The position numbers and the translations under genes were made by a program. Below, in pieces: positions 2,540 through 52,581 of a stretch of 64,000 nt of DNA (positions are counted from its first letter, which is position 1; each line of letters starts with the position of its first letter). Source of the stretch: a virus; IMG/VR virus record IMGVR_UViG_3300050821_002957, positions 207,192 to 271,191 of that record; one strand, given 5' to 3'. The notes beneath the pieces are model-generated. The model did not search any database and was not told where the DNA came from. It saw nothing but the letters and a program-made list of their open reading frames with translations.

Positions 2540-2830
2540 TTAGATTTCAGCGTAGGCTTTCGCAAACATTATTTCATTGGGTTTGTATCGAAATCTGGTT
2601 GCAGAGCGAGCCATTGCTTCCGACTTGTAGACCTTCGCCCCAGCAGTATAGGCTCCAGAGGTCGCCTTGTTATTTTTAAGGACAATGGCGACATAGCCCA
2701 GTTCAAGTCGTTTTGTTTTTTCTACTGGTGTCGGCGGGGCCGGTGGAATTGCCTCTAATTCTTGTGCCGAAATTTTCAAAATTGCATTGAGACCGAGTGG
2801 GTCCTCTGGATCGATTTTTTTCTTTTTCAT
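2540..2830 (-). CDS. hypothetical protein
   Basis: 96-aa ORF starting MKKKK, in operon. Confidence 0.4.
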   Translation of the reverse strand: MKKKKIDPEDPLGLNAILKISAQELEAIPPAPPTPVEKTKRLELGYVAIVLKNNKATSGAYTAGAKVYKSEAMARSATRFRYKPNEIMFAKAYAEI

Positions 2831-3042
2831 TCAGTCCACTTATTTTCTATTGCTTCTTCTACCAATGCCTTGGATGTCGATCCCCATACTTTGGTCGGCA
2901 ATAATTGACATGCTCGACGAATCCAGTCCAACAACCTGACATTTTCTTGTTGCAGCATCGCCATATCAGCAGGTAACTCATCAAGTTCGATTGCTACCTG
3001 TTCAAAAATCAAATTGCGGAGATCGAAGGGATCATCTATCAT
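2827..3042 (-). CDS. hypothetical protein
   Basis: 71-aa ORF, ATGA overlaps both neighbours. Confidence 0.35.
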   Translation of the reverse strand: MIDDPFDLRNLIFEQVAIELDELPADMAMLQQENVRLLDWIRRACQLLPTKVWGSTSKALVEEAIENKWTE

Positions 3043-3518
3043 TTACAAATAAAATTTTCCTTGATATGACTCACTGCTTTAGTCAGAGACGTGAATTGTT
3101 TGATGCCATAACGGTTACAGACAATATCGACATTTCCTTTACGCCAGAAGCCAGAAGGACATACTACATGCAGTTTGTCAGTACCAGCATATAGACCAAG
3201 TTCAAGAAGGCTGATCGGACTTTTCGTCGCCGGATCAAAGTACATAATGATTGCATCGGCAGCTTCAAGAGCATCCAATTCCCATTCGACTTGCTGACGA
3301 AATTGCCTACTTGATGCCACGTTCCGCCAATCAGAATTCCATTGTTCACGTCGTGGATTGAGCAAGATCACATCGTACTTTTTAAACATTGACACGACAT
3401 GCTTCTGCCACGGCTTTGCTCTATTCTGTTCGATGGAGCCGCCCAGAAAAATACGAAATCCGTCTGAAGGGTAGCTGTTTGGTGCTTTGAATTCTTGGGC
3501 CACAACTGAAGATAACAC
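3039..3518 (-). CDS. nucleoside 2-deoxyribosyltransferase / DNPH1(Rcl)-like protein
   Basis: IFLGGSIE...LLNPRRE...ADAIIMYFDPATKSPISLLELGLYAG matches CGSIRGG...SLGVGYELG pattern of the NDT/DNPH1 fold. Confidence 0.55.
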   Translation of the reverse strand: MLSSVVAQEFKAPNSYPSDGFRIFLGGSIEQNRAKPWQKHVVSMFKKYDVILLNPRREQWNSDWRNVASSRQFRQQVEWELDALEAADAIIMYFDPATKSPISLLELGLYAGTDKLHVVCPSGFWRKGNVDIVCNRYGIKQFTSLTKAVSHIKENFICK

Positions 3519-38120: not shown

Positions 38121-38128
38121 GCCAGTAT

Positions 38129-38427
38129 TTAGCTGGCTTTGACTCCTACTTCCTTCAACTTACGAGGACGGCCTGCTTTGCGTCCCTTTACACGGTCGTA
38201 CACACTGCGCTTGTGACTGTATCTGCGGCTACGAAAGATTTTATAGGCACGCTGAGTCAAAGTTTCGTCTTCTTTCATTTTAACACTCTCGATTGGAGTA
38301 GCGAAAATATTGACCGGGCCGCAGCCTGTAAATTCGTATCCACAGTGTTCGCAGCCGAGACACGGTTCATTCACACAAACACCCGGCGAAAGTTTCTTTG
38401 GTTTATCGTTTGAAAGTTGAAATGCCA
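38129..38427 (-). CDS. Zn-finger protein with C-terminal AT-hook (GRKAGRPRK)
   Basis: 99 aa from ATG 38425-38427. Confidence 0.4.
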
Positions 38428-38436
38428 TGACGGTAT

Positions 38437-38976
38437 CTATGTCACATGTAAATGCATGTGCTGTTGCAAATCCTTTGGTGTCTGACCAGCGAAGCGAATC
38501 ATACCCGAGATGTAATGAGTCCAGCCATCTGGTGTGATTTCGATTTGATGATCGTACATTCCAGGCCGGTCGGAAACGAACATCAAACTTTGAGGACGGC
38601 GTTCGATTCTCCATCCAAATTTGCGAAGCACGGTCATGTACTGATCGGAGACAGGTTTCGGGGCAGGTTGTGCCGCTGCTCCTGGAGATGGCTGTGGAAT
38701 GGGCGCTGGATCGGGCTGTAACGTCGCCAGATCGATTCCATGCTTCTCGGCAAGGCGTTCGGCCTGCTGACGTGCATTGATGCCTTCCGCAGCCGTTCCA
38801 GGCCGGGAAGCCAACGCCATCAAATTTCTGATTGTGGCAACGTGATCTCGTTCTGGACCTGATTTGATCTCTTCGTAATAGAGATGAATCACATTGTCGC
38901 CGATGCCTACACCATGAATGCCATTTTCACCCAGGAACTCATCTCGAATTTTTGCTTTGGTTTCAAGAAGTGTCAT
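38437..38976 (-). CDS. hypothetical protein with Pro-rich linker
   Basis: start MTLLETKAK. Confidence 0.4.
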   Translation of the reverse strand: MTLLETKAKIRDEFLGENGIHGVGIGDNVIHLYYEEIKSGPERDHVATIRNLMALASRPGTAAEGINARQQAERLAEKHGIDLATLQPDPAPIPQPSPGAAAQPAPKPVSDQYMTVLRKFGWRIERRPQSLMFVSDRPGMYDHQIEITPDGWTHYISGMIRFAGQTPKDLQQHMHLHVT

Positions 38977-39191
38977 GTGGTGAAGACTAGTGTTCAGGTT
39001 CCTCCGAAAACACAAAGTCAGCTAGTTTGTCGGCGGTCAACAGTACATCAGAGATCCTGACTGTTGAGCCATTGGAATTCGCAGCAGTTGATTCAAGCTC
39101 CGCTGCGAGTTGCAGAATTTCAAGTTTCAAAAAGCGTGCGTCCGGTTTCTGATCGACTGCTTGGACGGTGATGTTAGTAAGGTTCTTCTCG

Positions 39192-39521
39192 TCACTCATT
39201 GGTTGTGGCGGCTCCTACCATTACATAGCGATTCAGCTTTTCTGCGGTTGCCATTACCTTCTCAAGGCTGACTCGACCGGGCGAGCAAACCAATTCAGTC
39301 CCACGTCCACCTTCTCGGCGAGGTAACCAATAGTTGCCGCCATCCTTTGTGTCTCTGAATTTTTCCATCAATGTGGCGATGTATTCTTCTGCTTTGACCT
39401 TGGGAAGATTGCCCACGTCGATGTAGAAGATTCTTGATTGTGTGCTGCTTTCCTCAATTTGAAATGCCATCTTGAGCGTTTCGAGGCGCAGGAGTTGTTC
39501 GTGTTGCATGTAGTCACTCAT
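39192..39521 (-). CDS. hypothetical protein
   Basis: 109-aa ORF. Confidence 0.35.
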   Translation of the reverse strand: MSDYMQHEQLLRLETLKMAFQIEESSTQSRIFYIDVGNLPKVKAEEYIATLMEKFRDTKDGGNYWLPRREGGRGTELVCSPGRVSLEKVMATAEKLNRYVMVGAATTNE

Positions 39522-39557
39522 GCAACTATATATACGTTCAAGCTCTTGGAAACAGGA

Positions 39558-39842
39558 TCAATTCTCTTGGACTCGTATTCCTATTTCTTCGGCTTCTTGA
39601 GCACAAACCTCAAGCACCACTGCCGGATGCATCCACTGCATTAGCATCGCAGTGGTTCGGCATGTGTCGCAATTTCTAATGTGCTCTTCGATGCCCACCA
39701 TCTTGATAGAATTTGTTACGACGATTTCCACTGCATCAAACGTATTGTCCTGAGCACTAGTAAATGGAAATTGCCGGAAGGGATCTTCATTAAGGAGATC
39801 CAGAATCTGTTCTTCCGTTGCATGAAAACTTAATTTGGCCAT
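39558..39842 (-). CDS. hypothetical protein
   Basis: start MAKLSF. Confidence 0.35.
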   Translation of the reverse strand: MAKLSFHATEEQILDLLNEDPFRQFPFTSAQDNTFDAVEIVVTNSIKMVGIEEHIRNCDTCRTTAMLMQWMHPAVVLEVCAQEAEEIGIRVQEN

Positions 39843-39844
39843 GT

Positions 39845-40144
39845 TCAAAGTTCTGTGGCGACCACTTTCAAAATTGAACGTAAGCGCCACTCGTCGTCGC
39901 CCTCGCACGAAATCAGGCGCAGTGAGAAATATGGAAATCCCATTTGGTTCTTCTCTTCGATCACTTCAAACTCCATACGATCAGGCCGCAGATGCTCTTC
40001 CCACGCTTTGACAATGTGAAGGCGCAACTGCGGAGCAAGATGGCTGAACGCACTATCAGGATTGTCGTATTGGCCGGGAGTGAAAACAATCACTCCCGGC
40101 TTCATTTCAGTTGGCTGATACGCCGTTGGTTTCTTCTTCGCCAT
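39845..40144 (-). CDS. hypothetical protein
   Basis: start MAKKKPTAY. Confidence 0.35.
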   Translation of the reverse strand: MAKKKPTAYQPTEMKPGVIVFTPGQYDNPDSAFSHLAPQLRLHIVKAWEEHLRPDRMEFEVIEEKNQMGFPYFSLRLISCEGDDEWRLRSILKVVATEL

Positions 40145-40748
40145 CTTCGTCTTCTTCCGGCTCGTCGGCGAGCGTTTGCATGAAGGCTTCTTTGGCGGCG
40201 GCATCCATTCCAATCAATTGTAAAAGAGGCGTAGCAGAGACTAACGTGACGCCGTAGTAAGTGCTGTCGGGATTACGAGGTGGACGATCAGGAAGTTGTG
40301 AACCATAGCGGCCTTTCCCAGGTGCTTCTTGAAAGCCACGATAGAACTCGAATGTCTCATCATCGAGATTCACGATGTAGGCGTACTCACAGAACAAACT
40401 ATCGAGTAGGAAGCCGTGAGAATCGATCATGACACCAAGCTCTTCGTCGAGCCACGGAGCGAGACTGCCCTGAGCTTCACGCAACAGGCAATACCAATCC
40501 TCAAGTTTCTGTTTGCTCACTTCGAGGTTGGCCCACTTCTCGTTTGCGGCGATTTGTTCTGCGGTCGGCGGTTCATCGCTGTCGATCAAGACGATGGCTC
40601 GTGCGACCTTTTTCATCTGTTCGATTGACGATCCGATAATGTCGTCAATCAAGTCTGATCCAAGCCCGTCTGGATAGGAGTCGAAATGGTTGTATGTAAC
40701 CTTGTCGAGTCCGTCAATTCTGAATCCGAATGCGCCTCGTGTTCCCAT
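40107..40748 (-). CDS. hypothetical acidic protein
   Basis: 213-aa ORF. Confidence 0.45.
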   Translation of the reverse strand: MGTRGAFGFRIDGLDKVTYNHFDSYPDGLGSDLIDDIIGSSIEQMKKVARAIVLIDSDEPPTAEQIAANEKWANLEVSKQKLEDWYCLLREAQGSLAPWLDEELGVMIDSHGFLLDSLFCEYAYIVNLDDETFEFYRGFQEAPGKGRYGSQLPDRPPRNPDSTYYGVTLVSATPLLQLIGMDAAAKEAFMQTLADEPEEDEDGEEETNGVSAN

Positions 40749-41247
40749 TGTTGGGTCCTTTCGTACTGAATGCTTCTTTCAAAAATGCTGTTTGAATCTT
40801 GAACGCAAGTTGTCGTGGTTCTGTGAATATTGTAACACCCTGCGTCTCTTCGTTGCTGAATGTAAAGTCCACGGCGCTCTGCTGAATGTCCTCAGAAACG
40901 CCAAAAACGGCCAAGAAGCCGTCGATGGACACGATGCTATGGAAAGTGACCTCTTTGATCACGACGCCCGTCTCTTCATACGTCTCACGAATTCCGGCCT
41001 CTTGCCATGACTCATGACGTTCGATGTAACCACCGGGCATACAAAACTCTCCCCGGCCCGGATCGATGTTGCGTTGAAGGCCAAGGATGCCGATGTCGCC
41101 GCCATTTTCATCGACGATGGGCACAGCAATTATGATGATGGGGAATGGATTCAACCAGACATTCCTACCGCAGTTCTCACAATGAAAAGGATAGGCGTTC
41201 GATGCGTACTTGGTTCCGCAGTAATGACAATGATCGTTTGCTTTCAC
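40714..41247 (-). CDS. Nudix hydrolase with N-terminal C4 zinc ribbon (NudC-like)
   Basis: Nudix box GEFCMPGGYIERHESWQEAGIRETYEETG; CHYCG...CENCG upstream. Confidence 0.75.
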   Translation of the reverse strand: MKANDHCHYCGTKYASNAYPFHCENCGRNVWLNPFPIIIIAVPIVDENGGDIGILGLQRNIDPGRGEFCMPGGYIERHESWQEAGIRETYEETGVVIKEVTFHSIVSIDGFLAVFGVSEDIQQSAVDFTFSNEETQGVTIFTEPRQLAFKIQTAFLKEAFSTKGPNNGNTRRIRIQN

Positions 41248-41334
41248 ATTCCGAAGTGTACCACAAAAGAAAGGCCAGCCGAAACAACTGGCTGGCCGTA
41301 GAGAGGAGAAGGAGGAAATTTAGGCGTTGACGAC

Positions 41335-42126
41335 CTAAACAGGCTCGACCGGATAATTCGGCAGACCGAGACCGGCGATATGCTTGCATGAGCCATGAAC
41401 ACGATGGGCCATGCAAGAACACTGCCAGCGATGATTGGTCTTGTGCTGACCGATGGTGTACTCGCTCGTGCTGTCCGTGAATGATTTGACCGTGAAGCGA
41501 TTGGTGTAGAAGGCAGTGTCCTCCAAGCGAGTCGAGGTACGGGGTATCAGTACCTTCGGCAACACAGCGGGAAGCGGTTGGCGCTTCGGAGCACCAGGAA
41601 TATGAACTTCCTCGCACGAGATGTCATTGCCGTCATCGTCGATGCTGACCTTGAAGCAAAAGACCATCGGCAGACCATTGACCATTTTGCCGGTGTCCAC
41701 GACGTAGCGATACTCGATGTCGCAGGGATCTTTCATCATGATGCCACATGAAATGAAATCGAGGCGTTCCTTTTTCGGAACAGAAGTGAACTCACGCTTT
41801 TCGTTCGGGTCCTTTGGATTGTGCGAATGCTCGTGCAGCTTGCCTGCGGCATCTTTGAATTTGTAATCGACGGCGAACATCTCACCGAGGAACACGACGT
41901 ATCGGGCAGCGAGAAAAGCATCGTCATCCAGACGATTGTCCTTGAGCTTCTTGCAACGGCGAAGGAACTTGTACAGATCGACGCCAGCGCCCTTGGGATA
42001 GCCGTCGCTGTGACGATAAACGATGGCGCTAAGATAGGGCTTGTTCGTTACTGGATCGATGTATGTGCTGTCGATGAAGTGTGTCGTTGACCGTGTGCTC
42101 ATGTATCTAAGATAGCAAAGATACAT
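41335..42126 (-). CDS. hypothetical protein with C-terminal SWIM-type Zn finger
   Basis: CSCMAHRVHGSCKH. Confidence 0.45.
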   Translation of the reverse strand: MYLCYLRYMSTRSTTHFIDSTYIDPVTNKPYLSAIVYRHSDGYPKGAGVDLYKFLRRCKKLKDNRLDDDAFLAARYVVFLGEMFAVDYKFKDAAGKLHEHSHNPKDPNEKREFTSVPKKERLDFISCGIMMKDPCDIEYRYVVDTGKMVNGLPMVFCFKVSIDDDGNDISCEEVHIPGAPKRQPLPAVLPKVLIPRTSTRLEDTAFYTNRFTVKSFTDSTSEYTIGQHKTNHRWQCSCMAHRVHGSCKHIAGLGLPNYPVEPV

Positions 42127-42133
42127 CTAAAAG

Positions 42134-42472
42134 TCAACCACAGAGAGGAACTTTATTCTCTTCCTTTTCAACAACTTGAATCCACTTTCTCAGGTAGTAA
42201 CGAGCGTCGTATTTTGTGCTCGTTTCTGCTTGAACAAATGGCGTTGGTTTGCTTTCAAGAATGAGTGGCATCGGCGTGGCTTTCAACATTGCGAGTTTGA
42301 AACGAACGTCGGGCCGTCTATCGAATCGCACGATCATTTCAGGAGCGTATTGAATCGCTGTACCGCCCGGTGTGGATCGTTGTTTAAGAATTTCGATTTT
42401 GAGCGAGTCGTTCATTCTGCTCCAGCATGTACATTTCAAAATACACTGACGACGTGACATCGTTCTCCGCAC
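42134..42472 (-). CDS. hypothetical protein
   Basis: 112-aa ORF. Confidence 0.35.
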   Translation of the reverse strand: MRRTMSRRQCILKCTCWSRMNDSLKIEILKQRSTPGGTAIQYAPEMIVRFDRRPDVRFKLAMLKATPMPLILESKPTPFVQAETSTKYDARYYLRKWIQVVEKEENKVPLCG

Positions 42473-42992
42473 ACGCCAATGCGAGTTTGAAAAACTTTTC
42501 GTCAGTCTTCATGTACTCTTGAAGTTCTGTGATTGCTTGTGCTGCACTCTTAAAAAGAATGCCAATGCCGCCAGCTTCACGCCATGCTTTGATGTTCGCT
42601 TCAAAGTCGTCAATGAGGATGTCGCCGGTCTTTGCGTACTGAGCTTTTTCTTTTTTGTGTGCGACGATCTTTACGAGATCCGGTGTCCACATCAACTCTG
42701 GAAGTTCATTGTCAAGCCAGATGCGTTTGTGCTCATCACTCTTTTCAATGTGCGAAGACGCAGCAGAAAGAATGCCGGGTGTTGCGACTCGGCTGTATCG
42801 CACAAAATTGAACAGTGCTCGTGCGCCATCGACCCACGGAAGATCCCGAAAGAAATATGGATGATCGTTCAACATCGCCCACTTTTCTTCATTGGACCAC
42901 TTCATATTGTGATCCCAAGCCTTGCCGGTTCGACGAGTATAATCACCATCAAATTCGCACAACACGCCATCCATATCAAACCAGACTATCAT
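42384..42992 (-). CDS. 5'(3')-deoxyribonucleotidase-like HAD phosphatase
   Basis: motif I FDMDGVLCEF at N-terminus, GDILIDD near residue 135. Confidence 0.6.
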   Translation of the reverse strand: MIVWFDMDGVLCEFDGDYTRRTGKAWDHNMKWSNEEKWAMLNDHPYFFRDLPWVDGARALFNFVRYSRVATPGILSAASSHIEKSDEHKRIWLDNELPELMWTPDLVKIVAHKKEKAQYAKTGDILIDDFEANIKAWREAGGIGILFKSAAQAITELQEYMKTDEKFFKLALACAENDVTSSVYFEMYMLEQNERLAQNRNS

Positions 42993-43115
42993 TTTTTATC
43001 CCCTCGGAAAGAATCTATCGACGACCCACGCCAATAGACCTAAATAAATCGACCACAAACCCCACAAAAATTCCATACGTTTATTATAACCTGGGAATGT
43101 GGTTTTGACAACTTT

Positions 43116-43172
43116 GGGGAGTTTTTTTGGGACTTAAGAGGCTGGAACGGAGAGTTTTTGGGAGTTAAGAGA
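43116..43172. repeat. imperfect 25-bp direct repeat x2 (GGGGAGTTTTTTTGGGACTTAAGAG / GGAGAGTTTTTGGGAGTTAAGAG)
   Basis: in divergent intergenic region 42993-43383. Confidence 0.4.
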
Positions 43173-43404
43173 GATAAGAAATTTCACTGGAGGCGGCGTA
43201 AGTTTTTGTTTCGATGTGAATCATTTGCCGCAGATTATCGAATTCTAACTTAATGAATTCTCGCTGACATTCCAACGAATCCAGGCATAGCTGTTGCGGG
43301 GTGTTAGTGTCCACGGCGATCTCCATTAAAGAAAGTTCTCTTGGATATATATAGCGTCCCGCATAACTGTCTTAATAACTGGTTTGTCTATGGTAAGATG
43401 GAGC

Positions 43405-43728
43405 ATGTCCAAAACCTTTGAAGTTCCAGATAGGCCAAATAGCAAGACACTGAAAAACATCCACAATGACATGCATGATTGGTTCGGTGTCGATTTGACG
43501 GACGATCAGATTATTCATTATGGCAGGCAGAATCGTCACTTGTGGGCTGACATGCTTAATGGTGAATTTGATACAGTATGTCGAGAACAACTGGCAGATG
43601 AAATGGTTCGAGCAGTTCTCGGCTCTGGTAATGAATGGCCCAGGTATGGCGCTGGCTCACCTGTATTTGAGAAATTTATTGAACGGTTTCGGCCAGCAGC
43701 ACGAGCGGCAGGCATCAAAACCGACTAA
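43405..43728 (+). CDS. hypothetical protein (near-leaderless after TGgTAAGAT)
   Basis: start MSKTFEV. Confidence 0.4.
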   Translation: MSKTFEVPDRPNSKTLKNIHNDMHDWFGVDLTDDQIIHYGRQNRHLWADMLNGEFDTVCREQLADEMVRAVLGSGNEWPRYGAGSPVFEKFIERFRPAARAAGIKTD

Positions 43729-44300
43729 GGATTTGGTGGGATGTCGAGAAATATTCCGCTGTTCCAAAGTTCACATGTGTTGTGGAAGATTGTCGTCGAA
43801 GGCACGATTGCAAAGAGACCATTCATCATTGTCACAGTTACTAACGGTTGCACCATAAAAGTTCCGTTTAATGACATTGCCCATCCGCCGCTGTTAAATG
43901 AAATGTTGCTGTACGCTGTGGTCGGATCTCCTATCAAATTTATGTTCGGTGTCCACATACCAAAACGTACTTCAAGAGTTCTCGCCATTAAAACATTTGT
44001 TGTTATCTTCCATGACAAATCCCAATTTTTAATTAGAATGAATGTCTGATCCTGAGAGACAGCAACACCATAGTTGCTGATCTGAGAATAGCGAAGGTAA
44101 GTAGACGGTATCTTTGCGCTCGACGTTAAAGCGTGTCCTGGGTTAGCGAAGTATGCGTAAGCATGAGCATAGCTGCCGTCCGCATTGAAAATGCACTGAC
44201 GAAAGAATGAATCGTCTGTCTGATTCCACGGCACCTGCGAGACCGCTACACGAGTCTGCGCCGAAGCGACAAGAGCAAAAAACAAAATTAGAAATTTCAT
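43725..44300 (-). CDS. secreted protein with Sec signal peptide
   Basis: MKFLILFFALVASAQT signal; ATG 13 nt downstream of tRNA 3' end. Confidence 0.5.
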   Translation of the reverse strand: MKFLILFFALVASAQTRVAVSQVPWNQTDDSFFRQCIFNADGSYAHAYAYFANPGHALTSSAKIPSTYLRYSQISNYGVAVSQDQTFILIKNWDLSWKITTNVLMARTLEVRFGMWTPNINLIGDPTTAYSNISFNSGGWAMSLNGTFMVQPLVTVTMMNGLFAIVPSTTIFHNTCELWNSGIFLDIPPNP

Positions 44301-44313
44301 GATGTCAGATGTT

Positions 44314-44389
44314 TGGTAGACCCGGTAGGATTCGCACCTACGACCTCATCGATGTCAACGATGCGCTCTAACTACTGAGCTACGGGTCT
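44314..44389 (-). tRNA. tRNA-Val (anticodon GAC), CCA encoded
   Basis: manual cloverleaf: acceptor AGACCCG/CGGGTCT, D stem GCTC/GAGC, anticodon stem CATCG/CGATG loop TTGACAT, T stem GTAGG/CCTAC; D-loop lacks GG, T-loop TGCGAAT. Confidence 0.8.
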
Positions 44390-44785
44390 ATGTGGCTGGA
44401 CAACTATTTACAATTCTCGCAAAGCTCGGATTCGTTTGATTTGATCGGCTGCATACTCTTCTCGATTTTCATCCAAATAGATTGCAGCGAGCTTTCGTAA
44501 TGCTTCCATCAATACTTGCTTGGCTTCGCTAATTTCGTCTCGGCAATCACGTACCTTTTTGGAGTACTTGTCGTGAGCCGTCATTGGTGTGCTTGGTCTC
44601 ATAATCCTCGTCTCCAATCCTTCACCCATTCTAACGCAATCCACTCATGCATTCTTCGATCCAGGTCGCCGTTTCCCACCATCGTGTTTCTGTACCAATG
44701 GTCTTCGGAAAAAATAAGAACTTGGTTACCTCTCGACGATCATTTGCCCTAGGCCAGGAACGTGTCGATGCTGTCCAACGCATTC

Positions 44786-45103
44786 CTATTCTTCTTTCTT
44801 TGCCGGGGTCAGTAACTTCATCGATGTGTTGGAACAGAGGATAGCCTTTTGTCCTTGGATCGGCTCATCAAGTAATACGATGTACGTCTTGATGATGTGA
44901 TCGAGTGCTAGACCAAGTACGGTTCCGGTGCCCCTGATCTGATTCGTGATGTTGAACTGAATGTGATCATCAACATTGAACGTAACTCGAAACGCCGGGT
45001 TATCCAATGAATCTGATTTCACAGTTGGAACGACGAGCTTTTGGCCTTCTGGTGACTCGATAAAATCTTCGGCGGTGATGTTAATTATTTCCTGATTCTT
45101 CAT
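44786..45103 (-). CDS. hypothetical protein
   Basis: 105-aa ORF, AGGAAACA SD. Confidence 0.4.
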   Translation of the reverse strand: MKNQEIINITAEDFIESPEGQKLVVPTVKSDSLDNPAFRVTFNVDDHIQFNITNQIRGTGTVLGLALDHIIKTYIVLLDEPIQGQKAILCSNTSMKLLTPAKKEE

Positions 45104-45689
45104 TGTTTCCTGCTATGTACTGAATACCGTAATTCTGTCCTCGCTTTCCGAAGATCCAACGACCGGCGACCACACCCTTATAGATGTTCGCATTCATTAT
45201 CATGTTGGTCATGTCTGTCATCATCATAACAGATTTCATACCTGTGGTCATCGACTCCAATTCCAAATAGGCAGCGGAACGACCTCGACCATATCCAAGA
45301 ATCTTCATGGTATCATCAAACTCTGCTGGGACACGCCACTGATAGTCGTAATGTCTGATCTGCCAACCAATCCAATTGAGCCAATCCGCTTCGTCTTTCC
45401 ACGTTGGTTTCCCGTCGTAACGCATCGGATTCTGAAAGCCTGCATCACGAACCGCTTTCCATTCTGCCAGTTTGGTGATACAAACTGATTGCCTATCTGC
45501 CCAATGAGGAACATCGCCCGTCTGATTGTGAAACGGAATTTGTATGGTGCTCTTCCTCTTTTTTGTCGGCATAGAACTTTCTCCAAGAATACCACAAAAA
45601 TTTTGGTTGTCAAAAGAATCGGATGTGGTAGGATACGTAAAGAGGCTTCCCTTACAATATGAATTTGAGTTATGAAAATTTGATGGCAA
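45081..45689 (-). CDS. hypothetical protein
   Basis: 202-aa ORF. Confidence 0.45.
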   Translation of the reverse strand: MPSNFHNSNSYCKGSLFTYPTTSDSFDNQNFCGILGESSMPTKKRKSTIQIPFHNQTGDVPHWADRQSVCITKLAEWKAVRDAGFQNPMRYDGKPTWKDEADWLNWIGWQIRHYDYQWRVPAEFDDTMKILGYGRGRSAAYLELESMTTGMKSVMMMTDMTNMIMNANIYKGVVAGRWIFGKRGQNYGIQYIAGNNEESGNN

Positions 45690-46177
45690 GCTGTATCATG
45701 GCAGCAGTAGATATAGCTTTACAAGAAGCAAAGACAACCCCATTGACACCGGGCGCTCATGTCGGTCATGTGGATCTGGAGAAGTACGGCCCAAGGTGGG
45801 GAATACTTCAGACCATCACACCAACCGAAGCAACTGTCGAGATGAAAGACGGTGAAATCATGACTTGGGAAACTGAGGGAATGGTCGATATCGAACGTGT
45901 CGATTCACTCATCAAAGAAAACCAAGAAAAAGTGATGAAGGAAATCATGTTGCTTAATTCCCTGGACGAAAACAACAATGGTGTAGCATTAGAATCCAAT
46001 CCAATGATGATCGGTGGCGCTGACTTGCCGACTCCTGGTTGTGACTGTGATCACTGTGCTACGTTCACACCAGAACAACACGAACAAGCTCGGTTGGTGG
46101 CAGAACAGATGGGGCTGGACATTGATCCGAAATCTTCGACCTATCTTCAATTGAAAGCCGCTGCTGATCTCAACTAG
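45659..46177 (+). CDS. hypothetical protein
   Basis: 172-aa ORF. Confidence 0.45.
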   Translation: MNLSYENLMASCIMAAVDIALQEAKTTPLTPGAHVGHVDLEKYGPRWGILQTITPTEATVEMKDGEIMTWETEGMVDIERVDSLIKENQEKVMKEIMLLNSLDENNNGVALESNPMMIGGADLPTPGCDCDHCATFTPEQHEQARLVAEQMGLDIDPKSSTYLQLKAAADLN

Positions 46178-46542
46178 TCGTTCCAATCTGGAAGTTCCAC
46201 AGTTTGTCCTTTGAGACTGTGGAACGAGTCTGATAGGAATTGAATTTTGCCATCGGTTACATACGAATGGCAACGTTTTGTAGGATCATCACGCCAAACC
46301 ATAATGCTTGGTGTGAAGGTCGGCCTGACGATATCGTTATTCCATCCCCAGACAGGCTCTTGGCCTTTCACTCGTACACCGTGCAGGTATTCGCAGCCGG
46401 GACAGTGAAAGGCCATTTGAATGTCATCTGCTTCTTTGCCGTCGATGGCATTGTCGAAGCGATAAATTTTGTCGCCCACTACTGAATGCTCCAACCACAA
46501 GAATTTTTTAATCCTGTTTTGGTAGGAGTATTCTTCGGCCAA
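46174..46542 (-). CDS. hypothetical Zn-binding protein (CPGC...RCHS)
   Basis: 122-aa ORF. Confidence 0.45.
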   Translation of the reverse strand: MAEEYSYQNRIKKFLWLEHSVVGDKIYRFDNAIDGKEADDIQMAFHCPGCEYLHGVRVKGQEPVWGWNNDIVRPTFTPSIMVWRDDPTKRCHSYVTDGKIQFLSDSFHSLKGQTVELPDWND

Positions 46543-46884
46543 ATGAAATAACTACCGTCCGGGGAGACGGCGGCTTTCAGATCGTAAAGATCATAATAGT
46601 GACCATTGAATTCCTTATCACTGGAATAGGTAGTTGCATCAACATATGCCCACCATGTGTGGTTTGCGAACCTGACGTGTTTTAAGACCATCCCCATTGA
46701 TATCGCTACGTGTTCCTCGATGACCTCTATTGGTAGTCCCACTCCAGGTGACATGTTATGTCTCGTTACTGCGTTGCAAAGTTCTATAAACTTATCTTGT
46801 GTATGAGTCAGTTTCATTTTGTTGATGTCCTTGTGTAGCCATTTGCAAGTTCCCGGATTCGTATCCTCTTGTGTTGTAGACATC

Positions 46885-47262
46885 TTATTTCTTGTCTGCG
46901 TCAGCGACCACTTTGAATTCACCTGAAGGATCACGACATACAAGGACTTCATGCTTCTTGCCTTCGGAGTCTTTCAATTTTTCTTTTTTGCAAGGACTGG
47001 TCGGCTCGACATTATAGCCAGCATAGATCGGGAAGCCCCAATAGCTGTACGGATACCAACCATACCCTAAGCCGAAATTGAATCCATAATAACCACCATA
47101 GTAACCACGAACAACCACTGGAGGACGGTAGACTGGCCCATGATAAACCGGCGAAGAATGAAATGCAGGCGCAGGGTGTGAGTAACCACCGCCGCCACGA
47201 TGTTGTGCAAATACAAATGACGAACAAAGTAGAAGTGTGAGTGAAAGAATAAAGGTCTTCAT
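46885..47262 (-). CDS. secreted Gly/Tyr-rich protein with signal peptide
   Basis: MKTFILSLTLLLCSSFVFAQH then GGGGY...YYGGYYGFNFGLGYGWYPYSYWGF; CTAAATAG box 4 nt upstream. Confidence 0.5.
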   Translation of the reverse strand: MKTFILSLTLLLCSSFVFAQHRGGGGYSHPAPAFHSSPVYHGPVYRPPVVVRGYYGGYYGFNFGLGYGWYPYSYWGFPIYAGYNVEPTSPCKKEKLKDSEGKKHEVLVCRDPSGEFKVVADADKK

Positions 47263-47352
47263 ATGCCTATTTAGACGGATCTTCCAAGTAAATATTTGAG
47301 TGGTGCTATTGAAGCAAGTGGTTGTTTTGAATCACTTTTCATTTACCATGAT

Positions 47353-48108
47353 TCATGATCCATTGCAATTTTCACAGTTGACCGCTGGAATAGGATACTC
47401 GCCGCAGACGCACAAACGCTCTCTACGCTGTTCAAATGCTTCCTGAAGGTTCGGAGTGCCTGGAAGCGCCGCAAGCTCTTGGAACGCTTCTCTTACGTTT
47501 TTTATCACGTCCGAATTTTGTGTCCCTTCTTGAATGTGCTTGTGCAGCAGTTCGGTCGGCTGATAGTTGTGCAAAAAATGCCACAGTTCCATTGCACCCG
47601 ACATCAGAGCCAGATCACGATAGAAATGTGGAGCCTGCTTGAAACGGTTCGCCTTCTTGCTTCCCTTTTCGTCGGGATCGCCACCAAGCGCACGATAAGC
47701 TGTGTCGTAGTCGGCCATGACACCATCAAGATCGACATAGACAACACCAGTCGTTTTGGACCAGTCGATTTCTTTTAATTTACGGATGCAGCTTTCGGCG
47801 TCTTTGTAGATGATTGCGATTCCCCCGGCATTGATCCACTCAGAGCAATTCTTGGTGTTGTCGTCGATCAGCACATCACCCTTTTTGCAGAGCTTTTGTT
47901 TGTCCTGAGGATAGGCGACGACATGAACCTTCGGCCCTGTCATGTGCAGATGCAGGGCGACCCACTCGATTTTGTCATCGTAGCTGGTCTTTAGGTAATT
48001 CGATTTTGCGCTTAAGATTCTGATGTCTAGCATACCAGTATCTATCGTAGCATACATAGCACTGTCAGCACAACATACACCAATGAAGAAACGTGATGCC
48101 ATCCTCAA
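47353..48108 (-). CDS. circularly permuted deoxyribonucleotidase-like HAD paralog with C-terminal Zn finger
   Basis: N-half aligns to residues ~70-160 of 42384-42992 (KGDVLIDD...AGGIAIIY), C-half to residues ~1-70 (VYVDLDGVMADYD...FYRDL). Confidence 0.5.
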   Translation of the reverse strand: MRMASRFFIGVCCADSAMYATIDTGMLDIRILSAKSNYLKTSYDDKIEWVALHLHMTGPKVHVVAYPQDKQKLCKKGDVLIDDNTKNCSEWINAGGIAIIYKDAESCIRKLKEIDWSKTTGVVYVDLDGVMADYDTAYRALGGDPDEKGSKKANRFKQAPHFYRDLALMSGAMELWHFLHNYQPTELLHKHIQEGTQNSDVIKNVREAFQELAALPGTPNLQEAFEQRRERLCVCGEYPIPAVNCENCNGS

Positions 48109-48261
48109 ACTCGATTCGCTAGAGTGGGCGTTCGAGTGTCATCTGAAATCAAAACTTCCAAGTGATCTGAATTTGACAGACGAGTTTATGACTCTGTTCT
48201 ACGAGCGGACGAAGGAATTGAAAGATGCAATCCAGGCTCTACCGGGCGACAAGAATCACGG

Positions 48262-48852
48262 CTAGTTGTTTTTGTAGCTGCGATTGAAGACGCTTACAAT
48301 TTCTTCGGTGAATGAAAGCCTGAACGACGGCGGCTGGACGGCTGTATAATCCCATCCCATAGCAACGGCATAACTCAGTGAGATGTGCGGAACGAACCTA
48401 TGATACACCATGTCTACACCGTGCTCAACTGCAAAATTCCATTGCCGGTCCAGTTCGTTGCATTCAAAAAATAGAGCGAAGGCAGGTCCAATGGTTCCAA
48501 GAATGTAAGTTTCTGGGGCGATGTGAATTTGGCGACGGTCTGGAATGTATTCAGGAGGGAGTTGATTGCAGGCACAGACAACACTACAGTGGAGCTTTTC
48601 TTTTGCAAGAGGACTCGGAATGTGTTGATCCGAAAGCCATTCGTACAAAAGGTTGCGTGATTGAGTTTCTAGCGCCCGAAGTGAATAAACAGCCTCTTCG
48701 TGGTTTGCCTTTCGGTCTGATGCAACTTGGACCAGCACTTGATTATTTAGCTTTCTGTGAAGAGAGTTGCAGGCGGTGGAATGAACTGGAAATGTGGGCC
48801 TTTGTAATGAAAGCCGTGGACGTAACTCATGGTTTGGCAGGAATTGTACCAT
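48262..48852 (-). CDS. 2H phosphoesterase superfamily protein (LigT / Acb1-like fold)
   Basis: two H-x-S-x motifs (HCSV, HISL) about 75 aa apart. Confidence 0.45.
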   Translation of the reverse strand: MVQFLPNHELRPRLSLQRPTFPVHSTACNSLHRKLNNQVLVQVASDRKANHEEAVYSLRALETQSRNLLYEWLSDQHIPSPLAKEKLHCSVVCACNQLPPEYIPDRRQIHIAPETYILGTIGPAFALFFECNELDRQWNFAVEHGVDMVYHRFVPHISLSYAVAMGWDYTAVQPPSFRLSFTEEIVSVFNRSYKNN

Positions 48853-49205
48853 TCGACAATTTGCCTTGCATCGTCGCCTTCTGCAATGTCTTGAGAGCCA
48901 TCGTCATAACGGATGTTGATGTAAATTGCTTTATTCTGTTCGGGCACATTTTGAGTATAGCACCGTCGCCACAGGCGTCAAATTTTCTTCTTTGCCCATC
49001 CTTCTGGTGACGTTATTTCGGTGCCGAGAAAATACATGGGATCGAAGTCCAGATCACCGATACCTCGTTTCAACACCTTTTCGGGACTGACAATTTTTGA
49101 AGCCTGGACACCCTCTACAAAGCCGGGTTCCCGTTCGGCCTTATAGTCAAGGAATTCCAATGTGTGCGCCAGGGCTATGATCTCTTTGCTCTTGTCCATT
49201 GTGTG

Positions 49206-49556
49206 TCAGACTTCCTTCAGAACGGTTTCAGCTTCATCTGCGGTGAAGTATCCGACTTTTCCTTTGCCGCACAACCATACTAGCGAATTGCAACAGTGAC
49301 GGGCAACATGGCTTCCATATCCGGCGTCCTTCAGGCGTTGGATCAGATCGTCGCTGATGTATTTGTTGCCATCGCTGTACGGTTCGGTGAAGGCTTCGAG
49401 TGCCTTGCGAATGGTGCTAAGTGCGGTGCGATACTTGTCGGTATGCTCGTCGATTTCTTTCCAGCCTTCATCGGTGAGATTAAACATCATCGAACGATAG
49501 CTGGCAAGCAAACCGTCTTCGAGTTCACTGAATGCTTCTTCAAGTTCGGGCGTCAT
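49206..49556 (-). CDS. hypothetical protein
   Basis: 116-aa ORF. Confidence 0.4.
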   Translation of the reverse strand: MTPELEEAFSELEDGLLASYRSMMFNLTDEGWKEIDEHTDKYRTALSTIRKALEAFTEPYSDGNKYISDDLIQRLKDAGYGSHVARHCCNSLVWLCGKGKVGYFTADEAETVLKEV

Positions 49557-50496
49557 AGTCCTCCGGTCAGCTTCTTGATTGCTTCGTCATCAAGGCCATA
49601 CTTCTCGGCGACCAATGCGGCGTGGTCTGGCTTCAGTGGCAATGGTACGGCCCGGTAATAGCGCCAGAGGCCGTTATGACGCTCTTCGATACGCATGGTC
49701 TTCGGACAAATCTTCATCCGCACGTCGGGCACAGTAAGATGCATGAACCACATTAGCGTTCAATCCCAGACTTGTTGTACCAGTCGTAAAAGTTCGGCCC
49801 ATGGAACGCCGTAAACGAATCAAGAACACGCCTCCTCCGCAGCTTGCCAAACCGGATTTTTCGGAAGTGATCAAGATGATCCAGGATGGCTTGCAGGCTG
49901 CTCTGGATCACACAAGAGACGACCGAATGCCGGTGACTCATGATGACTTCAGCCACTACCTTGAAGAGGAAGTTTTCAAGGCGATCTGGGACCATCGTCT
50001 ATTTTCCGACCGTCCAGTACATTGAAGAGGAAAACTAATATGCCAATGCCGAAACTTCATACTCTTTCCGATGCCGAACTCGAAGCGGAACTAAGACCTA
50101 ATGAATCGCTGGCGACAGACTTTGGATATTTGACAATTTGATGATCGTCGGCATCCATGTTGTTTTCGGCTATGGTGCGACCGAGTTCGAGCATGAATTG
50201 AAGATCACTTATGCCTTCAGGCTTGACGGCGAGACAGGTTTTGCCATACATACCCCGACCCGAATAAGAACGGGTTTCATGCCCCATATCGTTAATCAAT
50301 TCTTGAAGTGTCATTTTAATTCTCCTGGAGGCGACGGTAGTATTCTTTCTTGGTACATCTCATAAGTGGTTCCCGGCGACGTGCAGCCAATACCTCTGCT
50401 GCAATGCTGTTTCCGACATCGGCACAACGTTGTAATTCGGCGTCAGAAAATTCGCTGTAGTTGGTGACAGCGTTCGCCAAATGTTCGGGCGACAAT

Positions 50497-50835
50497 TTAT
50501 CGTTCATGTTGTGCCTTGATTTCGCTGAGGGGCGTCGGTTTGAACCACAGATCACGCTCGATCTTGAGGCCCAGCGGGAGACGAACGCTTTCGAGTTCGT
50601 GAAGATTGAAATAGCCGAGTTCGTTATCGAAGCCGACGACATAACCAAAAAACAGCCACGTCTTGATTTCCTTGCCGTTTTCGTCTTCGATGACTTCTTC
50701 CTGGCCTTCGGTGGCGTACCAAGTCCAGCTACCGACCGGCGAGAAAAATTTGACGTGAACGGTGGGATTGGGGTTCTTTTCTTGAGAGTACAATTTCGGG
50801 AGCCGATTCTTGATCTCTGCTGTCATCATCTTCAT
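50497..50835 (-). CDS. DUF2958-family protein
   Basis: FFSPVGSWTWYATEG...LFFGYVVGFDNELGYFNLHELE. Confidence 0.5.
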   Translation of the reverse strand: MKMMTAEIKNRLPKLYSQEKNPNPTVHVKFFSPVGSWTWYATEGQEEVIEDENGKEIKTWLFFGYVVGFDNELGYFNLHELESVRLPLGLKIERDLWFKPTPLSEIKAQHER

Positions 50836-50841
50836 AATCTA

Positions 50842-50881
50842 ATCCTAACAGGTTCGAGGGCGAATGTCAATAGACGTATCT
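50842..50881 (-). promoter_or_regulatory. promoter AGATACGTCT-A-TTGACA / 17 nt / extended -10 TGtTAGGAT, leaderless (ATG 6 nt after -10)
   Basis: RC read directly. Confidence 0.45.
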
Positions 50882-51155
50882 ACTTTTTATCACCAATCAG
50901 TTCGTCAATAATGGCTTCTAGACCGACATGAATAATGGTGAATCCGTCCGCATCATTCATGGTTTTGGGGTAGCTGACATTAAGATCATGGCGGGAATGT
51001 TTGAAAATGTACGTCAACAGTGAGCCGTCCCGTTTGGCGTCCAAATACAGCACTAATCCCATCTCTCCGAAGTGCTTTAAAAACAAGCGCTTGAGATCCT
51101 CAGGAAACGCCAGATCATCGGCCAGCTTTAACTGCTCCAACGTGTAGGCTTTCAT
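50880..51155 (-). CDS. hypothetical protein
   Basis: 91-aa ORF. Confidence 0.4.
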   Translation of the reverse strand: MKAYTLEQLKLADDLAFPEDLKRLFLKHFGEMGLVLYLDAKRDGSLLTYIFKHSRHDLNVSYPKTMNDADGFTIIHVGLEAIIDELIGDKK

Positions 51156-51162
51156 ACTTCCA

Positions 51163-51203
51163 ATCCTATCAGGTTCAAGGGTTAAAAGTCAACTAGATGT
51201 ATC
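51163..51203 (-). promoter_or_regulatory. paralogous promoter GATACATCT-AG-TTGACT / 18 nt / TGaTAGGAT, leaderless
   Basis: shares GAACCTGWTAGGATT with promoter at 50842. Confidence 0.45.
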
Positions 51204-51788
51204 AGTTTTTTCGTACCAATTTGGCGGCATCGGGGTCCAGCTTTTCGTGTCCCGAATGTCGCAAGGCACGTCGGCGTCTTGTGGCCGTAGATGCTTGTGG
51301 TATGCGTGTAGGCGACGTTGAAATTTGGAAGTGCTCAGATAGTCCCCAAGCGTCATCGGTGCGTCTACGTGCGCCGGATTGAGTTCACCGCAGGTTGTAC
51401 AACGACGCAGCAGAAAATCGTGATCGCATTCGGTAGTGGCAGACGATGCATTCACAGTAGTGATGTCGTACCGTGTGAATGTTTCATTCGAGTCCCAACA
51501 AAGCGTGAGCGGTTCGATTTCCCTTATTGTTGCGGTGACAAAACGTGTTCCCTTCTCCTTGGACTCGACAAAAATTTTGAAGGATTCTTGCGTCATTAAC
51601 AGACGTTCAATCACATCACGATAGGTCAAATCTTCATCATCTAAAATACGAATTTTCCACTCACCTTCGCCCGGAAGTTCCCATGCGCCAGCAAGACATT
51701 CTTTCAATCCAGGATGAAGCAGTCGTACCCGAAGATTTGGTCGTTCGATTGGATTGAATTTACCGAAGTTAACGATGCTGAATGCCAT
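51189..51788 (-). CDS. hypothetical protein
   Basis: 199-aa ORF. Confidence 0.45.
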   Translation of the reverse strand: MAFSIVNFGKFNPIERPNLRVRLLHPGLKECLAGAWELPGEGEWKIRILDDEDLTYRDVIERLLMTQESFKIFVESKEKGTRFVTATIREIEPLTLCWDSNETFTRYDITTVNASSATTECDHDFLLRRCTTCGELNPAHVDAPMTLGDYLSTSKFQRRLHAYHKHLRPQDADVPCDIRDTKSWTPMPPNWYEKTDTSS

Positions 51789-51794
51789 GACGCT

Positions 51795-52358
51795 TTATTT
51801 AGTGGCCTCTTCCAAATTTAAATGGGCCTTCACTTCGTACTTGTCGTAAAAATATGGAGTGTGGTAGATCGGTTTTCGTTCGTTGAATGCGGCTAGAATT
51901 TTTTTGCGTTCGATCTTGAAGATAGCATCTGGAACGAACGCATATTCTTTGCGAATCAGTTCGGTGTTCGCAGCAAAATGATCGACGGCCAGTGAAGTGA
52001 GATCAATGTCGCAAATCAATTTTTCGTCGTTGGTTTCTGGTTTGAATCTATCAATATGCTTGGTCACCAGGATATAACGTTTGACACGTTGTGCGAATGC
52101 TTCGTCGTATCCTTCTCGCAAGGCAGCTTCATAAGCAGAATCCGCCGACCGTTCTTCGTTATCAGTGAATTCGCCTTCGTAGATGTAGTCATGAAACCAC
52201 CATGCAAATCGAAATGCTTCTTCGTCGTCAACATGCACCCCGGCCTGAAGTGCCTCACGGAGTTCTTTGAAACCGTCAGCAATGTGATCTAGATTGTGAA
52301 AAAAGCGATTCGGACGCCTGTATCCGTAATACAGTTGAACAAGGGTTTGTTGATTCAT
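51795..52358 (-). CDS. HD-domain metal-dependent phosphohydrolase (COG4339-like)
   Basis: FHNLDH ... WWFHDYIY. Confidence 0.45.
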   Translation of the reverse strand: MNQQTLVQLYYGYRRPNRFFHNLDHIADGFKELREALQAGVHVDDEEAFRFAWWFHDYIYEGEFTDNEERSADSAYEAALREGYDEAFAQRVKRYILVTKHIDRFKPETNDEKLICDIDLTSLAVDHFAANTELIRKEYAFVPDAIFKIERKKILAAFNERKPIYHTPYFYDKYEVKAHLNLEEATK

Positions 52359-52581
52359 GAAACGTGGAAGGTGACCACTGGCTTAACTTTATGTACAGTC
52401 ACCATCGTTTCCTTTCCGGTATAACCATACACCAATTCTATAGCACCGAATTTGAGGTCATAATGCCATCCAGCGAGCCAATAGCGTTCTAAGCTATAGG
52501 TGCCGCATTGCATCACAACCTCATGTCCGATTACTATGTGGTGGCCTTCAAAAGACATCATAACATGAATCGTATGGATGT

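Follow-up and report, generated by a model that had tools for sequence, protein, structure and literature searches.

Residues G18 and U55, the latter together with its pseudouridine (Psi55), are taught as invariant in cytoplasmic tRNA, and the question raised here is what to make of a phage tRNA gene in which both of them are exchanged. The gene encodes a tRNA-Val with the anticodon GAC and lies at positions 44314-44389, on the minus strand, of a 64,000-nt stretch of the IMG/VR virus record IMGVR_UViG_3300050821_002957 (positions 207,192 to 271,191 of that record; this whole stretch is hereafter called the window). It could be a working tRNA with an unusual elbow, a tRNA that evades host enzymes, an element for RNA processing, or a decaying gene. 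We favor the first of these and put at roughly 80% the probability that the locus encodes a functional phage elongator tRNA-Val(GAC), predicted to decode GUC and GUU, in which the elbow contact G18-Psi55 is replaced by A18-G55. Hundreds of other tRNAs, from phages, bacteria, and archaea, show the same replacement, and no description of it was found in the searchable literature.

The tRNA-Val gene was the single tRNA gene detected by ARAGORN in the window. Its sequence, AGACCCGTAGCTCAGTAGTTAGAGCGCATCGTTGACATCGATGAGGTCGTAGGTGCGAATCCTACCGGGTCTACCA, matched the Rfam tRNA model RF00005 along the full model (1-71) and scored 69.3 bits, where the gathering threshold is 29 (E=4.7e-13). The cloverleaf, at -27.0 kcal/mol, lay only 0.6 above the minimum free energy (MFE). 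Taken by itself, the MFE fold did not give the cloverleaf, which is common for unmodified tRNA sequences. A first-pass annotation of this DNA had described a tRNA-Val(GAC) with a sound cloverleaf and an encoded CCA, and this description was borne out by the ARAGORN call, the Rfam score, and the cloverleaf energy. The parts of the gene, with the evidence for each in brackets, were the following:

44314..44389, minus strand: tRNA-Val(GAC), 76 nt including the encoded CCA (ARAGORN, Rfam RF00005, cloverleaf energy).
44369..44376, minus strand: D-loop AGTAGTTA, read as A14 G15 U16 A18 G19 U20 U20a A21 (Rfam and three-gene alignments, position table).
44354..44356, minus strand: anticodon GAC in the loop UUGACAU, reading GUC, and GUU by wobble (ARAGORN, position table).
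44330..44336, minus strand: T-loop TGCGAAT, read as U54 G55 C56 G57 A58 A59 U60 (alignments, position table).
44314..44316, minus strand: 3' CCA, genome-encoded, after the discriminator A73 (sequence, position table).

All four stems (7/4/5/5 bp) were perfect, and the 7-nt anticodon loop UUGACAU had U33 and the purine A37. According to the position table, the tertiary core was canonical as well, with U8:A14, G15:C48, G26/A44, G10:C25/G45, C13:G22/G46, and A21 in place, and so were U54:A58, G53:C61, and G57. The valine identity nucleotides of Escherichia coli tRNA-Val we take to be A35, C36, and A73 as the main ones, plus G45 and G20. The window tRNA has A35, C36, A73, and G45; its position 20 is U where the E. 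coli set has G20, and the rules of the host may differ. Among the valine codons of 121 crudely called open reading frames (ORFs) of the window, GTC accounted for 38% and GTT for 24%, together a majority of 62%, which fits a decoding role of a tRNA with the anticodon GAC. The marks of a pseudogene were not seen, as the stems were perfect, the score was 69.3 bits, and the deviation was confined to positions 18 and 55. The window gene is thus a bona fide class I tRNA, canonical save for positions 18 and 55.

Which positions of the elbow are changed was determined from alignments. In the Rfam alignment, UGGU of the model stood opposite UAGU of the window tRNA, and GGUUCgA of the model opposite GGUGCGA. 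Aligned with three other tRNA-Val(GAC) genes, from the Caulobacter phages CcrSC and CcrBL9 and from a gut phage contig, the window had TAG where the others had TGG and TGC where the others had TTC. Position 18 is therefore A (44373) and position 55 is G (44335), while G19 (44372) and C56 (44334) are kept. The T-loop TGCGAAT with G55, reported earlier, was found as described at 44336-44330. The earlier statement that the D-loop lacks G18-G19 held for G18 and had to be corrected for G19, which is retained. In the same way, of the two tertiary pairs said to be altered, G18-Psi55 is changed and G19-C56 is intact in both the Rfam and the tRNA-Val alignments. Only the 18:55 tertiary pair is altered, with both sides swapped as a unit, and the other tertiary positions are canonical. 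Both replaced residues, G18 and U55 (the Psi55 site), are regarded as universal. They rank among the most conserved positions of tRNA, and Psi55 was called the most universally conserved tRNA modification in a 2021 review of T-loops in which G55 and A18 are not mentioned (PMC7912444).

The exchange of two residues that contact each other could be a chance event in one gene or a coupled change found elsewhere. To look at other viral tRNAs, IMG/VR was scanned with a pattern that joins a D-arm of the window type to a T-loop with G55 (GCTCAGTAG N1-3 AGAGC ... GGTGCRANNCC) and that the window tRNA matches. A loop of the A18 type without GG was combined with G55 at no fewer than 120 loci, and in all 121 matches listed TAG preceded an A, C, or T, i.e., A18-G19. 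The same D-arm pattern combined with GGTTC (U55) was likewise found at 120 loci or more; here, 119 of the 120 matches listed read TAGG, which is an ordinary A17-G18-G19 loop. The mixed combinations were rare: the A18-type loop with U55 occurred at 23 loci (full count), several of which have GG later in the loop, and TGG (G18G19) with G55 occurred at three.

The association was also seen in tRNAs that had not been selected by the pattern. For this purpose, all tRNAs called by ARAGORN in the fetched loci were reduced to unique sequences and counted in the order A18 with G55, A18 with U55, G18 with G55, and G18 with U55, the D-loop classes (AG without GG versus GG present) being heuristic and not a numbered alignment. 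The counts were 13/1/2/218 for the first viral set (Fisher p=2e-18) and 5/3/0/505 for the second (p=2e-10). The loci of the second viral set had been chosen by U55; even there, about 1% of the bystander phage tRNAs carried A18-G55, in D-stem contexts unrelated to the search pattern. Positions 18 and 55 covary, each change being rare without the other, and the association is beyond chance. Covariation had been proposed earlier as a check on this gene, and the check came out strongly positive across hundreds of other tRNAs.

The replacement is not confined to viruses. A scan of cellular genomes with the same pattern, one genome per GTDB species, gave at least 120 loci, and the hits followed lineages. 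All three isoacceptors of tRNA-Ala (GGC, CGC, and TGC), with A18-G55 and G3:U70, were found in dozens of Micrarchaeota genomes, and A18-G55 tRNA-Ala was also present in several Woesearchaeota genomes; the genomes of these two groups with such a tRNA-Ala included a complete chromosome (NZ_CP060530.1). Variant tRNA-Arg (CCT/TCT/TCG) occurred across Patescibacteria, variant tRNA-Phe(GAA) and tRNA-His(GTG) in single-cell genomes of Pelagibacteraceae, and variant tRNA-Phe in Verrucomicrobiota. The bystander tRNAs of the cellular loci, counted in the order given above, were 31/0/4/172 (Fisher p=7e-33). A metagenome scan for tRNA-Val(GAC) similar to that of the window yielded four contigs resembling the Candidate Phyla Radiation (CPR), one of them 585 kb long, in which the variant tRNA-Val lies between a canonical tRNA-Ile and a canonical tRNA-Leu. 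One of these CPR-like copies has compensated changes in the acceptor and anticodon stems and keeps A18 and G55. At one Patescibacteria locus, four of the five tRNAs were canonical and one carried A18-G55. Since canonical and A18-G55 tRNAs are mixed within one locus, the trait belongs to tRNA lineages and not to whole organisms. The core of the window tRNA is 91% identical to the CPR-like tRNA-Val(GAC). A link to a CPR host was not adopted, because tRNA-Val(GAC) cores are similar across bacteria.

Pooled, the variants amounted to 212 unique A18-G55 tRNAs in 43 anticodon classes for 18 amino acids. Their T-loop profile at positions 54, 56, 57, 58, and 60 was the same as that of 997 canonical tRNAs, with U54 in 97%, C56 in 100%, a purine at position 57 (R57) in 100%, and A58 in 99%, and the Rfam scores of those checked were about 45-70 bits. 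The window tRNA fits this class, as it has A18-G19 without GG in the D-loop, U54-G55-C56-R57-A58 in the T-loop, and is otherwise canonical. Related variant and canonical tRNAs differing by the double switch were found in separate lineages: Leu(CAG) in L374 vs. L311 (86% identity), Gly(GCC) in L014 vs. L173, and Ala(GGC) of Woesearchaeota in L281 vs. L352. An example from a cultured phage was sought by BLAST with four variant tRNAs, which returned canonical relatives (about 80% identity) or unannotated metagenomic records. The literature search on A18/G55 or on G18A/U55G in natural tRNAs, with most subscription journals outside its reach, returned only G55 in tRNA-Pyl.

These data bear directly on whether the gene is decaying or non-functional and has collected two chance substitutions, or whether its sequence contains an error. 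Such a suspicion has some ground in the high conservation of G18 and U55 (PMC7912444) and in the position of the gene within a variable island, which the one relative found (contig L393) lacks. However, none of the four stems has a mismatch, Rfam gives 69.3 bits, and the other conserved positions are intact. The two substitutions, moreover, are exactly the covarying pair of hundreds of tRNAs, which random decay or sequencing error would not reproduce. Both readings were rejected on covariation, and we regard them as extremely improbable. A functional tRNA with an unusual elbow, one of the possibilities named in the first-pass annotation, is what the data support, the gene being a textbook class I tRNA with A18 and G55 conserved in cellular tRNAs.

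How an elbow with A18 and G55 could be built is suggested by T-loops outside tRNA. Residue 18 of a canonical tRNA is inserted between the fourth and fifth T-loop positions (57 and 58) and contacts Psi55 through one hydrogen bond. A survey and a mutational screen of non-tRNA T-loops gave the consensus UGNRA, in which the intercalating nucleotide is adenosine in >99.9% of cases and is held by two hydrogen bonds at the sugar edge of the second-position G; the tRNA-type T-loop UUCRA was described as an exception (bioRxiv 10.1101/2022.12.26.521914). UGCGA of the window tRNA matches the UGNRA pentaloop, and U54 and A58, required for the closing U:A reverse-Hoogsteen pair, are present. By analogy, the pentaloop UUCRA of the tRNA type, which takes up G18, may have given way here to the generic UGNRA type with adenosine. 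A18 would be the candidate adenosine, intercalated between 57 and 58 and hydrogen-bonded to the sugar edge of G55. Binding partners of tRNA stack on G19:C56 (PMC4810234), and the proposed geometry would preserve the L-shape together with this flat face for the ribosome, RNase P, and other partners. The sites of Psi55 and 2'-O-methylguanosine 18 (Gm18) modification would be lost, since, according to established enzymology, there is no substrate for TruB/Pus10 without U55 and none for TrmH without G18. The mature tRNA-Val, which RNase P and 3' processing probably release from a polycistronic transcript, would supplement the decoding of GUC and GUU, the majority valine codons of the phage. The three-dimensional geometry, the aminoacylation, the translational use, and the co-transcription of tRNA-Val we infer from the sequence and its comparisons.

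Several known systems share features with the window tRNA. The tRNA-Val(GAC) of phages CcrSC and CcrBL9 agrees with that of the window in the anticodon arm, D-stem, variable loop, and T-stem, where some 60 nt align at 83-87% identity; the T-stem of the CcrSC tRNA is identical to that of the window, and the class I cloverleaf and the core tertiary nucleotides are common to both. The two phage tRNAs have G18G19 and T54-T55-C56, whereas the window tRNA has A18, G55, and a different acceptor stem that starts with A1:U72. The T-loop modules of the FMN and cobalamin riboswitches combine UGNRA with an intercalating adenosine, as UGCGA and A18 may do in the window (bioRxiv 10.1101/2022.12.26.521914). 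The window loop differs from them in lying inside a tRNA, in having the G19:C56 pair, and in being a 7-nt T-loop, with the A-G geometry drawn by analogy; the likeness is a resemblance in working and not a shared family.

A natural and active tRNA without G18G19 and T-Psi-C is tRNA-Pyl, e.g., that of Desulfitobacterium hafniense, which has G55 and keeps U54:A58 and R57 (PMC1851642). Its D-loop has 5 nt, its anticodon stem 6 bp, and its variable loop 3 nt; a single base links the acceptor and D-stems, and 18/19 do not contact 55/56, whereas the window tRNA has an 8-nt D-loop, a 5-bp anticodon stem, a 5-nt variable loop, two linker nucleotides, and the G19:C56 pair. The non-proteinogenic tRNA-Gly of Staphylococcus aureus, a donor of cell-wall glycine, likewise has a D-loop without G18G19 (PMC4574755). 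It carries U18U19 or C18U19, has lost G19:C56, and is kept off the ribosome; the window tRNA keeps G19:C56. This analogy was rejected, as G19 is kept and nothing links the window tRNA to a Fem-type transferase. Eukaryotic tRNA-Ala and initiator tRNA, with covarying A54-A58 and R15-A48, provide a precedent for the replacement of a "universal" tertiary pair (PMC7566577), although this precedent concerns 54:58 and 15:48 in another domain of life, with positions 18 and 55 unchanged.

The surroundings of the gene in the window comprised the following features:

44408..44644, minus strand: upstream ORF of 78 amino acids, with its stop 18 nt before tRNA position 1 and a weak PHROG match to phrog_639, transcriptional regulator (E=4e-4).
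44301..44313, minus strand: 13-nt spacer AACATCTGACATC between CCA and the next ATG, without a Shine-Dalgarno-like purine run.
43725..44300, minus strand: downstream ORF of 191 amino acids with a signal-peptide-like N-terminus, MKFLILFFALVASAQ, and no Pfam or PHROG hit.
38121..52581, no strand: variable segment of about 14.5 kb that holds the tRNA (tblastx against contig L393).

The 13 nt given earlier for the distance from the tRNA 3' end to the ATG at 44300 was exact (44313-44301), and the product of gene 43725-44300, which had been called a signal-peptide protein, does begin with what looks like a signal peptide. The tRNA-Val gene is co-oriented with both neighboring ORFs. No terminator-like site was found in 42900-46300, no promoter-like site between the two ORFs, and no promoter motif TAnnTTTG upstream of tRNA-Val; the gap between the tRNA and the downstream ORF leaves no room for a promoter. 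Given the same strand, the 13-nt gap, the absence of a terminator in 42900-46300, and the lack of room for a promoter, it is plausible that tRNA-Val is co-transcribed with the downstream secreted-protein gene.

This arrangement could also be taken to mean that the locus is primarily a tRNA-like processing or stabilizing element, including a decoy, in which a cut by RNase P or a 3' nuclease separates the upstream ORF from the secreted-protein mRNA or sets the 5' end of the latter, with decoding secondary or absent. The packing would suit it, with 18 nt after the stop, 13 nt before the ATG, one strand, and no terminator- or promoter-like site between; however, tight packing is usual in phage genomes. 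An element of this kind would need neither an intact anticodon arm nor valine identity nucleotides, an encoded CCA, or core tertiary pairs. The anticodon, moreover, matches the preferred valine codons of the phage. We consider such a role very unlikely, and no result supported the decoy or processing element suggested in the first-pass annotation.

The window as a whole resembles an accessory region, and the phage is novel and probably large. Apart from numerous small ORFs, genes for two NT5C-like proteins, a Nudix protein, a GP88-like protein, and an AAA ATPase were recognized. Relatives were found through the GP88-like protein, with DNA for a single contig, L393, in which this protein is 66% identical. 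By tblastx, 52.6-54.1 kb of the window corresponds to 10.0-11.5 kb of L393, and 37.1-38.1 kb of the window to 11.5-12.5 kb of L393. The flanks of the segment 38.1-52.6 kb are thus adjacent in L393, which places the tRNA in a variable segment. The A18-G55 tRNA-Val is absent from L393, which has seven tRNAs, all with canonical elbows. By tblastn against phages, the only hit lay in a Xanthomonas jumbo phage, with 34% identity.

Several points weigh against the reading of the gene as a functional tRNA with a substituted elbow contact, or limit what the comparisons can say in its favor. No close relative with this tRNA was found among 50,697 phage records, IMG/VR, and metagenomes by blastn, an exact IMG/VR scan with a 23-mer of the T-arm, scans with neighboring proteins, exact-protein lookup, and a metagenome pattern scan; hence, the conservation of this particular tRNA is unsupported. 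The sequences compared share ancestry, and a single sample (3300045988) supplied many of the viral hits, so that the Fisher p-values overstate independence. The locus totals (at least 120) are lower bounds from which frequencies in phages vs. cells are not derivable. Some of the "cellular" hits are contigs of metagenome-assembled genomes (MAGs) and possibly represent DNA of phages or mobile elements. Finally, the valine codon usage rests on the crude calling of the 121 ORFs.

A further reading is that the A18-G55 elbow was selected in phages and mobile elements for insensitivity to readers of the T- and D-loops, such as T-loop-cutting tRNases, TruB, and TrmH, or that a phage factor uses it to tell its own tRNAs from those of the host. 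G55 and A18 take away the substrates of Psi55 and Gm18 formation (PMC7912444), and a T-loop-cleaving toxin, CdiA-CT E479, is known to cut between T and Psi (PMC9086364); however, no T-loop nuclease is known to serve as a phage defence, and the single tRNA of the window has no identifiable nuclease or tRNA-modifying gene nearby. Phage tRNAs have also been proposed to escape anticodon nucleases via loop mutations (PMC10264068). Like the window tRNA, these are phage-encoded and atypical at conserved loop positions, but their changes affect the anticodon loop and were judged against the tRNA of a known host, whereas the change in the window lies in the elbow. The anticodon loop of the window tRNA is identical to that of the other tRNA-Val(GAC) genes compared, all of them from phages. 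A few phage- or mobile-element-like loci have G55 in every tRNA (6/6 in each of the loci L329 and L303), which is improbable at a background of about 1%. Most phage arrays, however, have one variant tRNA amid canonical ones, and a locus in a CPR genome has one variant among five tRNAs. Furthermore, several phyla have A18-G55 as a fixed trait of cellular tRNAs that are essential, which argues against, without excluding, a phage-specific trick.

We therefore regard counter-defence as an unlikely explanation of the elbow. Evasion of a host tRNA nuclease had been mentioned in the first-pass annotation, and no result supports it, the anticodon loop being ordinary for tRNA-Val(GAC). It is likewise doubtful that the A18-G55 elbow is an unrecognized tRNA architecture under selection rather than merely tolerated, with the Psi55 and Gm18 sites removed and G19:C56 kept and with entire tRNA islands such as L329 and L303 furnished with it, and that the window tRNA is thereby protected from host enzymes or toxins. 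The functional elongator tRNA-Val remains the reading we prefer.

The searches also recovered a number of other unusual tRNA loci. On the Verrucomicrobia MAG scaffold JAJNBN010000124.1, positions 2694-3164 of locus L329 (plus strand) matched the Rfam GOLLD RNA with 152.6 bits at a threshold of 150, and an A18-G55 tRNA-Met(CAT) lies inside this match at 2757-2831. All six tRNAs called by ARAGORN in this 8-kb locus have G55 and are interspersed with a gene for an HNH endonuclease and a beta-lactamase-like ORF. The locus looks like a phage tRNA island in which the whole tRNA set has the variant elbow. The second such cluster, L303:6925-7782 on the Akkermansiaceae UBA2381 contig DDSV01000036.1, consists of six tRNAs (Thr, Leu, Cys, His, Ile, and Asn), all with TGC T-loops and D-loops of the A18 type. 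It adjoins ORFs for DUF3150, DUF1257, and an AAA-ATPase, a context that resembles a mobile element.

Further covariations of the elbow were observed in IMG/VR contigs of 60-170 kb from sample 3300045988 (L005, L007, L008, L047, L048, L053, and others). In the tRNA arrays of these contigs, two substitutes for G19:C56 were seen, namely A19:U56, with the D-loop AGTTGAATA and the T-loop TTTGAGC, and C19:G56, with AACTGCATA and TTGGAGT; C55 occurs together with G18G19 (TCCGAAT). An A18-G55 tRNA with an 8-nt anticodon loop, labeled "Pro|Thr, tggt" by ARAGORN, was present in many copies, in L019, L021, L022, and about 30 other IMG/VR contigs of 63-134 kb, as well as in Segatella copri (L280, L328), and a related family has anticodons with A34 (Leu-aag, Thr-agt, and Pro-agg). 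These 8-nt-loop and A34 tRNAs may be frameshift, suppressor, or intron-containing tRNAs. A transfer-messenger RNA (L115:5050-5423, minus strand; Rfam, 66 bits) was found in IMGVR_UViG_3300033233_000014 within a viral array of 40 tRNAs, 10 of which have G55. A dense array of 36 tRNAs on the Chloroflexia chromosome OY969916.1 (L332:1-4700) contained nine with G55 and several T-loops starting with ATC, GTC, or CTC.

Other genes of the window and of L393 were noted as well. A Nudix hydrolase is encoded at 40714-41247 on the minus strand (Pfam E=4e-11); its N-terminus has a Cys-rich CHYC...CENC motif, zinc-ribbon-like and reminiscent of NudC-type enzymes. Two homologues of NT5C-type 5'-deoxyribonucleotidases, at 42384-42992 and 47353-48108 (both on the minus strand), lie within 5 kb and flank the tRNA. 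A 263-amino-acid ORF at 41335-42126 (minus strand) has a C-terminal WQCSCMAHRVHGSCKHIAGLG that resembles a SWIM-type zinc finger; at the thresholds applied, neither Pfam nor PHROG gave a hit. Besides the protein encoded downstream of the tRNA, another small one, encoded at 46885-47262 on the minus strand, looks secreted; it begins with MKTFILSLTLLLCSSFVFAQ and has a low-complexity core rich in Gly, Tyr, and Pro, with no family match. The two signal peptides have a Bacteroidota-like look and a Shine-Dalgarno sequence is missing; these are impressions only. In L393 (1-887 and 1495-7203), a Ro60/TROVE plus vWA gene adjoins pairs of tRNAs with the same anticodon (Ala/Ala, Phe/Phe, and Asn/Asn), and the contig also encodes ADP-ribosylglycohydrolase, SET-domain, and integrase genes.

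From the window gene we arrive at a class of tRNAs that are canonical apart from a strictly coupled A18-G55. The class makes up about 1% of the phage tRNAs sampled, and DPANN archaea, Patescibacteria, SAR11, and Verrucomicrobiota also have it, lineage-wide, among their cellular tRNAs. For annotation, this means that A18-G55 tRNAs should escape flagging as pseudogenes. If the geometry proposed for the elbow is true, these tRNAs would connect the elbow of tRNA with the generic T-loop module known from riboswitches and ribozymes and would represent a natural experiment on the need for Psi55, Gm18, and TruB. They would also offer a modification-independent elbow for engineered or orthogonal tRNAs.

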